DNA of 41,714 bases from a virus (Duplodnaviria; Caudoviricetes). The stretch covers positions 1-41,714 of the IMG/VR virus record IMGVR_UViG_3300034008_000014; one strand, 5' to 3'. Under the pieces are notes generated by a model. It had not been told where the DNA came from. It ran no database searches and saw only the letters and a list, made by a program, of their open reading frames with translations. Below, piece by piece: positions 35,057 to 39,462 of the stretch (position 1 is its first letter; the number at the start of each line of letters is the position of its first letter). Both the position numbers and the translations under genes were made by a program.

Positions 35057-35472
35057 CGCCGATAGGTGCGGCGTGGCCACAGCGAGCCGCGCAGGCCGTC
35101 CACGGCCGGGCCGAGCGGGACGATGCGCAGCCCCTTGTTGGCGCCCGTCTTCGTGACCAACAGAAGCCGCCCCATGCCGTCGACCTTCACGGCGACCTGT
35201 ATCGCCCTCTCGCAGGGCAGGGGAACGCAACTCCGACAGCTCCGCGTGTAGCTGCCGCGGAAGTAGCGTTTACATGTAACGCACTTACGCTCACCTGGCT
35301 GCACCTTGGCGAAGAGCGCCGACAGCTCGGGCTCACCGTACTGCCCAAGCCAGCGGGCGAGCGCCACCCGAGAGATGCCGATGTAGTCGGTCACGGCGTT
35401 GGGCGTCTGGTCGGCGTCGAGTAGCGCCCTGACCCGCGCGATGCGGGCGGGAACGTCGATCCTGGCAGTCAC
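35053..35472 (-). CDS. HTH plus Zn-finger protein
   Basis: VTDYIGISRVALARWL helix-turn-helix-like; CVTC, CRSC. Confidence 0.6.
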   Translation of the reverse strand: MTARIDVPARIARVRALLDADQTPNAVTDYIGISRVALARWLGQYGEPELSALFAKVQPGERKCVTCKRYFRGSYTRSCRSCVPLPCERAIQVAVKVDGMGRLLLVTKTGANKGLRIVPLGPAVDGLRGSLWPRRTYRR

Positions 35473-35846
35473 GGCAGACGCCTGTTCATGTCCACGAGGC
35501 TTCTCGCTGTGCGCCCCGTGGACATGAGGTAGTACGCGGGCCAGCTCAGGGCCAGAGCGAGCCCCAGCTCGACCCTGGCCCCCTTCGACTGAGGCCAGCC
35601 GGGCAGCAGGATGATGCCACGGCAGCCCAGCGCCAGCGCTTCGGCCAGGTCGTCGGCCAGGTAGTCGCCGAAAGCGGCTGAGCCGAGACCGTTAGGCTCG
35701 TGGTGCACGACCAGCGCAGGATTCACGACCATGACGCCGTGACGGCTGCACCACTCCGCAGCCGCAGCGAACGCCGGGAAGTTAAACTCGGGATAGCCAG
35801 ACATCGGGCCAGAGAGATAATAGGTCAGGCTCTTGTCGATGCTCAT
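35469..35846 (-). CDS. DUF4406 / nucleoside 2-deoxyribosyltransferase-like protein
   Basis: YYLSGPMSGYPEFNFPAF, VVNPA, LLPGWPQSKGARVE motifs. Confidence 0.85.
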   Translation of the reverse strand: MSIDKSLTYYLSGPMSGYPEFNFPAFAAAAEWCSRHGVMVVNPALVVHHEPNGLGSAAFGDYLADDLAEALALGCRGIILLPGWPQSKGARVELGLALALSWPAYYLMSTGRTARSLVDMNRRLP

Positions 35847-36787
35847 GGCAGAGAAATCACTTTCCGGGCACCGCGCAGCATCTTGGGCGCGCTCAGCGCT
35901 ACGTGGTGCTTGCTGTGCAGGACCCAACCATGCCGGGTCAGCTCCCAATACTCACCCGGCAGGCCCCGGGCCTCGACGCGCGCCCCCACGGGCAGCGCGG
36001 CAAACTCGGCCTCCGTGCGCAGTGTGTCGCCGACCTTCGGGCCGACCTCGACGGCCTCGACGGGATACCACGGGCCGAGCTCGGCGAAGTTCTTGACCTC
36101 GTAAAGCGTGTTCCCGTCGCTCAGCGTGCAGACCTTCGTGTCGCCGACCTCGAGGCCGTTGCGATGCCAGAGGACATCAAAAAACCCGACGAAAGCGCGC
36201 TCAGGCTCAGCCTCGACGGGATACCACGGGCCAAGCTCGGCGAAGTTGGCTACCTCGGCCACGCCAGACGCCCAACTGGGCGCGCCGGTGACTAGTCGTA
36301 TGCCGTCGTCGGCGCGCAGTTCAATCGGAAAGAGCATAAAAGCACGCTCCTCGGAGGGCTGCTGTGACTCAAGCGGTGCCGGAATCCTGATCGGGCCGCG
36401 CTCGCGCTCAGCTAGTTGCTCGATGTCGCCGACCAGGGCGGCGAGGTTGGCCGCAGTCGGCCGGTCATCCGTCCCCAGCCCCCGCGACTGAAAGGCGATC
36501 AGCGTGTGGAGATTCCACATCGCGTGCGCCAGGTGGGACAGGCCGCTCTCGGGGTCAACGTCCTCACCGCCGAGCCAGGCCAGGAAGTGGCGGCTCGCAG
36601 CGTTAGCGCTGAGCGACCAGTCGTAGCCGCGTAGGAAGTTGTGCTGACTGTACTTCTGAGCGCCGAAGCCAGCCACCTTCGCCAGCTCGGTAATGGCCCG
36701 CGGGTCGAGAGCGGCAAACTGTGCCAGTTTCGAGCCCTTCTGGCCGCCCGTCGCGCTGGTCACCCGTACCTCTTCGTCATCCTTCAT
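35843..36787 (-). CDS. dATP/dGTP diphosphohydrolase (DUF5664) domain protein with C-terminal extension
   Basis: GGQK, FGAQKYSQHNFLRG, RH...GEDVDPESGLSHLAHA motifs; SD AGGAG at ATG 36787. Confidence 0.85.
   Translation of the reverse strand: MKDDEEVRVTSATGGQKGSKLAQFAALDPRAITELAKVAGFGAQKYSQHNFLRGYDWSLSANAASRHFLAWLGGEDVDPESGLSHLAHAMWNLHTLIAFQSRGLGTDDRPTAANLAALVGDIEQLAERERGPIRIPAPLESQQPSEERAFMLFPIELRADDGIRLVTGAPSWASGVAEVANFAELGPWYPVEAEPERAFVGFFDVLWHRNGLEVGDTKVCTLSDGNTLYEVKNFAELGPWYPVEAVEVGPKVGDTLRTEAEFAALPVGARVEARGLPGEYWELTRHGWVLHSKHHVALSAPKMLRGARKVISLP
36054..36247. repeat. 38-bp intragenic direct repeat (1 mismatch)
   Basis: 36054-36091 and 36210-36247, both encode NFAELGPWYPVEA. Confidence 0.9.
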
Positions 36788-36822
36788 GTCGTCTCCTGGT
36801 TTGTAAGTATGTCTGGACAAAG

Positions 36823-36946
36823 TGGAAAGGGCAGGATTCGAACCTGCGACTGCGGCGTGCCACGTGCGCCCGGCGTCTCTGCCACGCTTCCGGAATTCCA
36901 CACGTGCCTAGGTGCACCTGCTGCTCTACCACTGAGCTACCTTCCC
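36823..36946 (-). ncRNA. tRNA-like RNA with Ala identity and an expanded anticodon arm
   Basis: Acceptor GGGAAGG/CCUUUCC-A (G3-U70, A73), U8A9, D arm GCUC-AGUGGUA-GAGC, T arm GCAGG-UUCGAAU-CCUGC; about 70-nt rod instead of the 17-nt anticodon arm. Confidence 0.8.
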
Positions 36947-36958
36947 TGAAGACTAAAA

Positions 36959-37203
36959 CGCCGGGCACGCTTCCCCACGTGTCCACCCCGGCGCCCTAGT
37001 CAGGAAGGCGCCCACTTCGTACCGATGGTCAGCACTCCCACAACCCAAGCCATGCTGTCGATCCAGCGGGCTAGAGTAATTGGTGCGCTGAGCGGTTGGC
37101 CCGTGGGCGCCTACCTGGCCCCCGAGACACCGCCGCTATGGCAGTGCCTCGGGTCTGAGCAGGTCGTGCAGATCAGATGAGCGCGCTTGCGCGCGAGTCA
37201 TCC
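36959..37203 (-). ncRNA. structured non-coding tract (several hairpins)
   Basis: Stems at 36959-36993, 37001-37117 (14/15-bp closing stem), 37121-37153, 37154-37177 and a GCAA-tetraloop hairpin near 37182-37193; G-U pairs favour the minus strand. Confidence 0.6.
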
Positions 37204-37713
37204 TCAGAACGGGGGCGGCTCTTCACCCCCGCCGAAGGCGTCCGGCTCGGGTCCGGCCTCGACCTTCACCGCGTAGAGCTTCTGGGGGAAGCGCTTCTTG
37301 GCGCGCTCCGGGTCGGGGTCGACCTGCTCGCCCGAGAACTTGACGCTCACCTTGTCGCCGACCCTGATGGGGCGGCCGAGCTTCTTGGTGGCCTCGCCGA
37401 ACGAGTTGAACAACGCGGAGGGCTTCTGAGCCCACAGCGAGCGCTCCTCGCCTGCGGCCGGTCCCTCCGTCATCGCCAGCGCCACCACGACGGTCTTCAC
37501 CGGCTGGTCGTTGGGGGTGGTGGTCTTCCGGCCCTTGTTGTTGGGGTCCCAGAAGACAGGATCGCCACTCTCGTAGTCGCGGGCCTGGACCAGCTTCGGG
37601 ACCTCGAGCACGGTTCCGGCCTGCACGTCGCCGACCTTCGCCGTCTTCCAGCTCACGGACTCACGCTTCGCCTGCTGCGCGAACGGGTCCTGCTCGGGGG
37701 TGGTGTTGCTCAT
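37204..37713 (-). CDS. ssb: single-stranded DNA-binding protein (actinophage type)
   Basis: QARDYESGDPVFWD, VGDKVSVKFSGE, KLYAV and acidic tail EEPPPF; highly biased codons. Confidence 0.75.
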   Translation of the reverse strand: MSNTTPEQDPFAQQAKRESVSWKTAKVGDVQAGTVLEVPKLVQARDYESGDPVFWDPNNKGRKTTTPNDQPVKTVVVALAMTEGPAAGEERSLWAQKPSALFNSFGEATKKLGRPIRVGDKVSVKFSGEQVDPDPERAKKRFPQKLYAVKVEAGPEPDAFGGGEEPPPF

Positions 37714-37831: not shown

Positions 37832-38986
37832 CTACTCTACACCCGTTGTGCCTGGTGTCAAGCCCTTTTCTGAATGAGTTTTGAGGGAGCTTGACGGCTG
37901 CTCGCGCGGCTCGCCGCCGAGACGGCGAAGCCAGTGCTTCGAGTCGCGCCGATGAGCTCGCACGGCAGCGCTGAGCGCTACGGCGGCGTAGCCTTCGACT
38001 AGATCGACCGTGTACGCCTCGGCCTCGCCCGTGCCCTGGGCCACGTGCAGAATGATGCCGACGTGTTTACACGCACCGAGCTCAGTGCGCTCTCCTGTCT
38101 CGGGGTCGTAGCGCTTCGAGTTCGCGTACATAGCGAGCTGCTGACCCATCTTCCCGGCGCCGTAGTCGACCCGGCCGGACTTGACATCGCCGACCACGGG
38201 GCGCTGACAGCGCTCGGGGCACGGATGCATGTCGATGTTTTCGGCGCCGAAGGTTGCGAAACTCAACAGTCGGTCGAAGGTGCCCGCGGCCTGCCAATCG
38301 TCGTTGACCACGAACGTCTCAGGGCTCGTAGCAATGGCGTGCAGGTCTTCGAGCAGTCTCACGTATGCGGCCAGGTCGGCGCGATCCTGAAGCGTCACGG
38401 GGCGCGGTGGGCCGACCTCCTGAGGCAGCAGGTCAGGCAGTGGCTCGTGCGCGTCGACGTACTCGGTCAGCTTGTGCAGGTCCGTGCCGCGCTGAGCCTT
38501 GGCGTGGCCGTCGCCGACCTCGAACGCACGGCGGGCGATACGACTGAGCACGGTGCGCGCCGACTCGGCGAAAGGATCGTCGCCTGCGGCGAAGGCTGCG
38601 TCGAGCTTGGCCGCGTCGACCTGGCTAAGCTCATCCCAGAGTGTGTCCGTAAATTCGTGTGTGCTCTTGCGCCAGTCGAGAGCCAGACCAGTAAGCACGA
38701 CGCGCTCACGCCAGGCTTCGAGCTGTTCCCGGCTCTCTAGCGCACCGATAAACGTCGTGCACCGGGTATACAGTTTCTCGAGGTAGCCCTGCCCCTTGCA
38801 CTTCGGGCACTGCTTCGTCTTGCCAGGCCGGGCGCCAGGCACGCGACCTTCGACGCACCCGAGACCCATAAGGGCGCCGATCATCGAAGCGTCAGGGCAC
38901 GGGAGCTTGATGTACGGGCGCCCGTCTTTGGCGCGTCGCACCTTGGTCGGATCGGGAAACTCTGTGCCGAACGGATCGTTACTCAT
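37832..38986 (-). CDS. PD-(D/E)XK exonuclease (RecE/Cas4-like)
   Basis: RGTDLH, AGTFDR, GDVKSG, QLAMYA motifs; N-terminal Zn-binding Cys. Confidence 0.85.
   Translation of the reverse strand: MSNDPFGTEFPDPTKVRRAKDGRPYIKLPCPDASMIGALMGLGCVEGRVPGARPGKTKQCPKCKGQGYLEKLYTRCTTFIGALESREQLEAWRERVVLTGLALDWRKSTHEFTDTLWDELSQVDAAKLDAAFAAGDDPFAESARTVLSRIARRAFEVGDGHAKAQRGTDLHKLTEYVDAHEPLPDLLPQEVGPPRPVTLQDRADLAAYVRLLEDLHAIATSPETFVVNDDWQAAGTFDRLLSFATFGAENIDMHPCPERCQRPVVGDVKSGRVDYGAGKMGQQLAMYANSKRYDPETGERTELGACKHVGIILHVAQGTGEAEAYTVDLVEGYAAVALSAAVRAHRRDSKHWLRRLGGEPREQPSSSLKTHSEKGLTPGTTGVE
37834..37861 (-). promoter_or_regulatory. promoter for the ssb / ncRNA unit
   Basis: TTGACA-N16-TAGAGT. Confidence 0.7.
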
Positions 38987-39068
38987 CGTCCGGCCCGTCG
39001 ATGACGCCGACCGACTCGAGCCAGTCAATCCACGCGCCGACCAGCCAGGCGACGGCGCGGCTAAACAC
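38979..39068 (-). CDS. very small hypothetical protein (29 aa)
   Basis: GTG start overlapping the mazG end; fills the gap before the exonuclease. Confidence 0.4.
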   Translation of the reverse strand: MFSRAVAWLVGAWIDWLESVGVIDGPDDE

Positions 39069-39462
39069 GCTTGCCGCCGTGGCGATATGAGCGGGTCCGA
39101 TTGTAGAACATCTTCCGCTCGTACTCTTCGAGCAGGTCGATGCCGTAGCGACCACAGGTGTCGAGCAGCCGGATAAGCACGTCTGCCGCTTCACTGCCTA
39201 CGCCTTCAGGTTTCGGGATGCGGGCGCCTTCGGTGATCTGCTGATAGGTCACGCGCTCGGTAGCGTCGTCGGTGCCGTGGTCGCGGAAGGCTTCGAACAT
39301 CTCTGAAACCTCAGAGTGCAGTAGCGCCACGTCATCGCCGAAAGTGCGCTCTGTGTCGTGCCAGCCGTTGGCCCGATTCAGCCTGGCGACTTCTTCGGTC
39401 AGCTCGGCGAGCGACTTGCCTGGCTCATTCAGCTCAGCGAGCTCGCGGATATTCTCGGTCAT
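39061..39462 (-). CDS. mazG: MazG-like nucleotide pyrophosphohydrolase
   Basis: LLHSEVSEMFEA, SEAADVLIRLLD, KMFYNRTRSYRHGGK. Confidence 0.88.
   Translation of the reverse strand: MTENIRELAELNEPGKSLAELTEEVARLNRANGWHDTERTFGDDVALLHSEVSEMFEAFRDHGTDDATERVTYQQITEGARIPKPEGVGSEAADVLIRLLDTCGRYGIDLLEEYERKMFYNRTRSYRHGGKRV

Follow-up and report, generated by a model that had tools for sequence, protein, structure and literature searches.

The window analysed here, a stretch of 41,714 nt that makes up a complete 41.7-kb virus record with a G+C content of 65%, carries on its minus strand the gene for a tRNA-shaped RNA in which the acceptor stem, D arm, and T arm frame a long, non-decoding arm in the place of the anticodon arm. 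The element is a maintained, new form of a known, unexplained type of tRNA-like phage RNA. Its arm recurs in four other phage elements, and each of the five displays a self-complementary bulge through which two copies could pair. We put the probability at roughly one half that this RNA is excised from the transcript of an ssb operon by RNase P and 3' trimming, and that it forms homodimers via its bulges. The window includes siphovirus-type head and tail genes and has protein relatives in actinobacterial phages, and the phage sequence has been seen mainly in biocrust (soil-crust) metagenomes.

Structure of the Element

The element extends from G1 to the discriminator base A73 and comprises the following parts, in which L150, L130, L204, and L249 denote the loci of the four related elements described in the next section.

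36823..36946, minus strand: gene for the tRNA-shaped RNA, spanning 124 nt (G1 to A73), CCA not encoded
36940..36946, minus strand: 5' strand of the acceptor stem, pairing with 36824-36830 (G1-C72, G2-C71, G3-U70); discriminator A73 is 36823
36923..36937, minus strand: D arm with canonical 4-bp stem, G15 and G18G19; Levitt pair covaries G-C/A-U
36914..36921, minus strand: proximal stems of the arm, one pairing with 36852-36855 (4 bp, including an A.C mismatch), the other with 36857-36860 (4 bp); compensatory changes in L150 and L130, same fold in L204 and L249
36907..36913, minus strand: 7-nt bulge ACCUAGG, in which an A precedes a self-complementary hexamer; a kissing contact between molecules is predicted here
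36861..36906, minus strand: distal arm, an 8-bp stem (36899-36906 with 36861-36868) carrying a tip that varies; first four pairs covary
36856, minus strand: single 3' purine bulge between the proximal stems
36831..36851, minus strand: 4-nt variable loop and T arm with T loop UUCGAAU; stem covaries

The Rfam tRNA model matches 36823-36946 on this strand with 50.3 bits (E 5e-8) over model positions 1-71 with a 62-nt insertion, which is the only gathering-level Rfam match in the whole window. The initial annotation of this DNA had given the coordinates and letters of the element, an intact tertiary core, and the acceptor determinants, all of which are borne out by the sequence (U8, A14, G15-C48, G18G19, UUCGA, G1-C72, G2-C71, G3-U70, and A73 are all found), by the Rfam match, and by pair probabilities of 0.87-1.00 for the acceptor, D, and T arms (0.99 for the D stem). 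The acceptor (7 bp, G3-U70, A73), D arm, and T arm are those of a canonical tRNA-Ala; in the place of a 5-bp anticodon stem and a 7-nt loop with U33 and an alanine anticodon stands an arm of 70 nt, exceeding the canonical arm by 53 nt where about 50 nt had been estimated, and ARAGORN detects no tRNA or tmRNA gene in the window. The letters of the element are identical (0 differences) in contigs of three other runs (matching stretches 36715-36913 in X3, 36854-37004 in X4, and 36421-36849 plus 36880-37030 in X5), so that assembly error is ruled out, and no variants of the element were found in four DNA sequencing runs. The runs listed as containing the sequence include no RNA data set.

Conservation of the Arm

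The arm is common to five elements, from the window, L150, L130, L204, and L249, and the family spans unrelated phages with G+C contents of 42-66%. L150 occupies the same slot in a related 39-kb phage, with an exonuclease 53% and a capsid 74% identical to those of the window; its acceptor is identical to the window's and its arm measures 50 nt. L130 belongs to a phage with 42% G+C, where it lies 391 nt downstream of recT, and L204 and L249 come from high-G+C phages in which neither element follows an ssb gene. The shared architecture is 4 bp, a single 3' purine bulge (missing from L204), 4 bp, a 7-nt 5' bulge, and a stem, capped by a tip whose length and sequence vary between members. All five members have a 7/5 acceptor/T geometry, as opposed to the 8/4 or 9/3 of allo-tRNAs, and none encodes CCA.

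Covariation was judged from a script-made, segment-wise alignment of these five members, which represent four hexamer lineages. Of 28 pair positions in six stems, 27 pair in all of the window, L150, and L130, and 12 do so with two or three pair types, while the Levitt pair is G15-C48 in three members and A15-U48 in two. Because the arm is shared by four other elements with compensatory changes in its stems and in the Levitt pair, the element is, on sequence comparison, judged to be maintained and not a decayed tRNA. The nested rod drawn in the initial annotation stands in its proximal stems, which covary, whereas the UCCG/CGGG stem of the distal part derives from folding energy alone. A palindrome-blind pairing score applied to 116 arm clusters of the wider class of long-arm elements (see below) gave 12/12 for L130 and L150, and 11/12 for the window, L204, L249, and the unrelated rod L123.

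BLAST of the 431-nt region of the window against GenBank phages returned short D- and T-arm matches only, never covering the arm, and searches with L130, L204, L150, and L249 likewise gave no arm-covering match; single-protein locus searches with the SSB-like protein and with the exonuclease found nothing. Among 23 exonuclease-anchored loci, most of them 29-39% identical or truncated, the pattern found the element in one (L174, the phage of L150), and Rfam over 19 such loci gave the same single match. RF00005 scored above its cut-off in 7 of 35 related virus records, mostly fragments, with a long arm only in G001. The proteins P0002 and P0011, encoded on 3,358-nt contigs, show 60-63% identity to the proteins flanking the element. 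Relative L157 has the ssb gene of L150, yet its slot contains different hairpins and nothing tRNA-like, so the element is dispensable or replaceable.

The Self-Complementary Bulge

In every family member, the 7-nt bulge is an A followed by a self-complementary hexamer, and four different hexamers occur in the five elements: ACCUAGG in the window, ACUCGAG in L150, AUCUAGA in L130, and ACCAUGG in both L204 and L249, which count as one lineage. The hexamers of the window and L150 differ in four of six letters. Self-complementarity was noted as an idea from these two, before L130, L204, and L249 were recognised, and at a palindrome background of 0.016 per position the probability for the two later independent lineages is ~3e-4 as a product of rates. 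As the hexamer changes in sequence yet stays self-complementary, and cannot pair within itself, pairing between two molecules is the simplest reading; the covariation of the bulge points to homodimer formation, a prediction made from five sequences.

Constrained folding of the 116 arm clusters yielded five 5'-side bulges of 6-8 nt, and all four of those with 7 nt were an A plus a palindrome; the window is not among these four. Class-wide, palindromes at the bulge offset are weakly enriched (5/116, p 0.038 uncorrected), and no general excess of palindromes was found in the class (G3-U70 clusters have 42, with 28.7 expected, and the remaining clusters 66, with 95 expected). The window arm itself contains six palindromic hexamers, a number reached by 45 of 5000 shuffles, of which only the bulge hexamer is conserved as a palindrome.

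The shared rod fold of the window element has an energy of -47.2 kcal/mol against a minimum of -49.7 kcal/mol, and the minimum-energy fold hides the bulge inside a local hairpin; while the conserved self-complementary hexamer is found by covariation, its exposure in the window requires a conformer 2.5 kcal/mol above the minimum. Taken alone, the window arm is no more stable than its shuffles (z +0.74, with 385 of 500 equally good). Hexamer duplexes are predicted at -8.0 and -7.3 kcal/mol. RNAcofold dimer energies (-111.2 vs -99.4 kcal/mol) were dropped as support because they had no shuffle control and kissing lies outside the model of that program. In crystallised branched kissing loops, an unpaired A is described next to a 6-bp kissing helix on the bulge side (PMC8457670); that structure joins a bulge with a loop, whereas the contact proposed here would join a bulge with a bulge.

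Two other roles for these sequences were considered and rejected. A DNA-level role of the hexamer is opposed by its unconserved sequence and by the lack of a second nearby copy (two in the genome), and a role of the arm as antisense to a phage gene by the absence of any 11-mer match elsewhere in the genome. Elsewhere, in the G3-U70 rod of L127 (2501-2612), the palindrome UCAUGA overlaps a 7-nt bulge that lies on the 3' side; this may be the same device in mirror form.

Alanine Identity

The initial annotation centred on alanine identity, and the main role of the RNA might be that of an alanine-charged, non-decoding mimic acting in trans, as an EF-Tu or ribosome modulator or as an alanine donor. 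G3:U70 is described as the main AlaRS element (PMC5389517), and G3-U70 is present, together with A4-U69, in the window, L150, and L130. Two of these three members came from a pattern that demanded G3-U70, which makes their agreement partly circular, and G1, G2, and A73 were fixed by the search patterns and are uninformative. The pair is more frequent among long-arm G1G2G3/A73 elements than wobble at positions 4-7 (26/81 vs 10/135, p 6e-6), is rare in non-Ala tRNAs (7/343), and is kept in 6 of 9 Microbacterium forms (see below) across different acceptor sequences. Against this, L204 and L249 have G3-C70, as do 3 of the 9 Microbacterium forms; the class rate is that expected from tRNA-Ala ancestry, with 18 of 46 canonical tRNAs with the same ends, all Ala, carrying the pair (p 0.44); in an acceptor-unbiased set, among the matches listed, 6 of 62 elements, one of them the window, have G3-U70; and CCA is encoded in no family member. 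With the pair in three of five members and a class rate that matches tRNA-Ala ancestry, alanine charging is plausible without being defining; the letters G3-U70 and A73 that the initial annotation read are there. The window copy can probably be alanylated, but charging would be lineage-specific; as the main role of the RNA, we consider alanine mimicry unlikely.

Genome Setting and Processing

On the minus strand of the window, the gene order is exonuclease, promoter-like site, SSB-like gene, a 257-nt structured spacer, the element, and dATP/dGTP pyrophosphohydrolase.

37832..38986, minus strand: exonuclease gene (phrog_466, E 2e-48)
37834..37861, minus strand: promoter-like site of sigma-70 type in front of the SSB-like gene, 10/12 consensus matches; near-identical site in L157
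37204..37713, minus strand: SSB-like gene upstream of the element (phrog_1911); weak OB-fold evidence, acidic tail ending PPF
37002..37203, minus strand: structured non-coding spacer, no Rfam family; z -4.39 for the region 36790-37205
36951..37001, minus strand: strong hairpin, 20 bp long, ending 4 nt before G1; z -3.93 vs shuffles; predicted 3'-end protector of the upstream mRNA
35843..36787, minus strand: dATP/dGTP pyrophosphohydrolase gene, downstream (phrog_801, E 2e-39); start codon 35 nt past A73

A Foldseek search with the SSB-like protein gave best rows that were mostly SSB/RPA, none at E<=0.001, and the ESM Atlas search returned unnamed phage clusters only. The spacer at 37002-37203 contains several extra hairpins including a long branched stem, and a different structured spacer occupies the equivalent slot of L157 (1296-1486). 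Genes of nucleotide-pool metabolism (dATP/dGTP pyrophosphohydrolase, deoxyribosyltransferase-like, MazG-like) are clustered at 35469-36787 and 39061-39462 on the minus strand and may serve nucleotide modification or counter-defence. Several palindromes are avoided in the window (observed vs expected: GCCGGC 0 vs 39.9, CAGCTG 0 vs 17.9, CGATCG 0 vs 17.5, CTGCAG 0 vs 11.5, GACGTC 4 vs 19.3), and these are likely host restriction sites.

A search of the minus strand between 35500 and 39500 gave no terminator-like site, and the element is for this reason probably co-transcribed with the SSB-like and pyrophosphohydrolase genes on either side. The upstream hairpin, which like the self-complementary bulge and the T5/T4 precedent discussed below is absent from the initial annotation, ends 3-5 nt before G1 in the window, L150, L204, and Microbacterium phage Squash, and 2 nt before it in SadLad; in L130 and L249 the upstream structure is no better than shuffles (z +0.28 to -0.78).

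Squash was reached by BLAST with L150 and has a tRNA-like element between ssb and a MazG pyrophosphohydrolase gene. This slot matches 41 Microbacterium records, several of which are called cluster EG in the abstracts of the relevant literature. Twelve of the 41 phages were examined and contain nine distinct forms of the element, 55-122 nt long, whose sole common part is an acceptor with a T arm, some (55-61 nt) having no D arm; none showed a canonical anticodon loop on manual reading. A73 is present in 8/9 and CCA in 1/9, and the elements are mis-annotated as tRNA-Ser, -Tyr, -Val, or OTHER, or are left without annotation. In L355 (1900-2057) and L357-L367, elements stand behind a near-invariant hairpin after ssb, with bodies swapped and flanks kept. 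The window and Microbacterium SSB proteins share one 27-residue stretch, and because the Microbacterium elements have no bulged arm, they are analogues of the window element by position only.

The constancy of acceptor and T arm alone, together with the upstream hairpin, suggests that the element marks an RNase P cut site. Its fold, its position between genes, and the hairpin would be consistent with such a processing element. RNase P is reported to cleave T4 precursors that lack CCA, as well as mRNAs and the phage M3 and C4 RNAs, and to favour CCA (PMC11143913), whereas the window has CUU directly after A73. It might accordingly be asked whether the element is nothing other than a cis-acting cut signal that shapes the operon mRNA, with an idle released RNA and coincidental palindromes. 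The minimal Microbacterium forms, the hairpin, and the ssb and pyrophosphohydrolase flanks common to the window and Squash would fit this explanation, yet it leaves unaccounted for why unrelated phages that differ so widely in G+C content keep a bulged arm whose stems covary and whose hexamers, four different ones, are all self-complementary, and we regard it as improbable.

Relationship to Known RNAs

The closest precedents in plan are RNA1 and RNA2 of phage T5 and species I (rnaC) of phage T4, which are 125-144 nt long and annotated as 'tRNA-like stable RNA with unknown functions' and 'small, stable RNA', respectively. T5 RNA1 and RNA2 fold into an acceptor, a D-like arm, an enlarged anticodon arm, and a T arm, and the element resembles them and T4 species I in joining a tRNA body to an enlarged non-decoding anticodon arm, a likeness by folding for which no homology is claimed. 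Differences are that the T5 and T4 RNAs lie in tRNA clusters of large coliphages whereas the window element is solitary within a recombination operon; that their variable arm is long or their acceptor irregular and their scores fall below the Rfam tRNA cut-off, whereas the window has a canonical 7/5 core; and that their predicted folds have no bulge of A plus palindrome. For decades the tRNA-like stable RNAs of T4 and T5 have been without an assigned function, as PMC3014915 states for RNAC and RNAD of T4.

Non-decoding tRNA-like folds within transcripts also occur as t-elements, which direct cuts by RNases P and Z in plant organelles and are usually degenerate, with no conserved cargo arm, whereas the window element has one. 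The tRNA-like domain of tmRNA shares G3-U70, A73, and the want of an anticodon. The tmRNA-like role raised in the initial annotation is nevertheless not borne out, since there is no tag frame, no pseudoknots, no ARAGORN or Rfam tmRNA match, and a full D stem; of the tools that annotation had named, Rfam recovered its tRNA model but neither tmRNA nor YrlA, ARAGORN and BLAST added nothing beyond the short matches above, and the comparison of relatives did reveal compensatory changes.

YrlA combines D, T, and acceptor mimicry with a long stem in the place of the anticodon arm, and in M. smegmatis it undergoes RNase P cleavage and acquires CCA (PMC4201824). In YrlA, as described there, the acceptor arises by internal cleavage and the stem binds Ro60 via GNCGAAN0-1G beside rsr, none of which was found here. 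By analogy, the arm could serve to bind a protein of the phage or the host, which the RNA would tether in the manner of a Y RNA, an explanation encouraged by L180 (1800-2200, minus strand) of Isosphaeraceae, in which tandem long-arm tRNA-like repeats, Y-RNA-like, lie directly upstream of a TROVE/Ro60-like gene (a family assigned by reading the protein), and by the long-arm elements near DUF2828/DUF7788 genes in L128 and L141. The window arm has neither CGA, and hence no GNCGA motif, nor the recurring CAGCA, GUUCCU, and GUUAYC motifs; Ro60 and RtcB are found in 0 of 52 ORFs scanned with PHROGs; Rfam gives no match to YrlA or Y RNA; and the bulge changes its sequence while self-complementarity stays. 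A YrlA or Y RNA identity is rejected, and the tether is to our minds highly improbable.

An intron-containing or decayed tRNA-Ala gene is barely credible: when 53 nt are deleted near the arm's 5' side, the remaining loop contains U33 and GGC (Ala) on 3-4 stem pairs, a possible trace of tRNA-Ala ancestry, and a few members of the class, such as L051, rebuild into canonical arms, but 0 of 18 deletions in the window combine Y32 and U33 with four or more pairs, 0 of 18 give U33 in L150, bulge-helix-bulge geometry is absent, and the arm and Levitt pair covary. Removal of a single stretch thus restores no canonical arm in either element, the intron-bearing tRNA is largely refuted, and the view of the initial annotation that the RNA is non-decoding and under selection is upheld by these deletions and by the compensatory changes. 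The element is neither a canonical tRNA nor an intron-bearing tRNA, tmRNA, YrlA, or allo-tRNA, and its plan is that of the T5 and T4 tRNA-like RNAs.

The Wider Class of Long-Arm Elements

A pattern requiring 55-85 nt between a D arm and a T arm located at least 119 loci in IMG/VR, with 55 of 64 parts scanned. Among the matches listed, 103 were distinct, of which 62 passed the filters (closed acceptor, no inner tRNA remnant) and 41 were dropped; A73 is present in 30 of these 62 and CCA is encoded in 10. In matched scans, 26 of 33 G3-U70 elements and 55 of 63 distinct G3-C70 elements were clean, and over four limited pattern scans the class amounts to at least 143 elements that are distinct and clean, grouped into 116 arm clusters.

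Its composition is heterogeneous: TROVE-like or DUF2828 genes and recurring motifs accompany some members, while a few others resemble interrupted tRNAs. L051 (1494-1605), on a viral contig, is a tRNA-Gly(GCC)-like gene interrupted by a structured insert of 44 nt where introns usually lie. In Aeromonas phage Aeh1 (L353, 2885-3006), a 122-nt long-arm element annotated as tRNA-Val probably belongs to a subclass with CAGCA/CCGCAA motifs and is not a decoding tRNA. Streptomyces phage Yara (L354) has two unannotated tRNA-like elements (1656-1740 and 2474-2540), one after an acidic-tailed gene ending PPF and the other with an anticodon arm reduced to a 4-bp tetraloop stub. The literature searched, mostly openly accessible, gave no account of the arm family, the bulge, or the Microbacterium post-ssb elements; the models of 10,006 candidate viral RNAs that accompany PMC10690425 could include this element.

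Proposed Mechanism and Significance

In the mechanism that we favour, host RNase P would cut the co-transcript at G1, leaving the upstream ssb mRNA to end in the strong hairpin and uncoupling the ssb message from the downstream nucleotide-metabolism genes. A 3'-trimming enzyme and the addition of CCA, which is standard for tRNA genes that do not encode it, would then yield a stable RNA of ~127 nt. The tRNA body may serve as a protective scaffold for the arm. Engineered tRNA scaffolds likewise keep the acceptor, D, and T arms, and in them a cargo replaces the anticodon stem-loop while the host tRNA machinery processes and protects the product, although their cargo is artificial whereas that of the window is natural and conserved (PMC3753655). 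Six base pairs between the bulges of two copies would, if the covariation is read correctly, create a particle in which tRNA elbow and acceptor end are each present twice.

Our leading guess is that host proteins recognising the elbow or the acceptor end of tRNA would bind such a dimer as a decoy. In its fullest form, which we offer tentatively and consider doubtful, unrelated phages would encode a two-headed tRNA mimic joined by bulge-bulge kissing, a bivalent decoy that titrates defence toxins or sensors at the elbow or acceptor end and whose excision also tunes the ssb operon.

Such RNAs are common in phages, yet ARAGORN misses them. The Microbacterium elements make the processing idea testable in a laboratory host, and the covarying self-complementary bulge provides a structural handle that point changes could disrupt and then restore. 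If true, a tRNA mimic that forms homodimers in nature would be a new RNA architecture.
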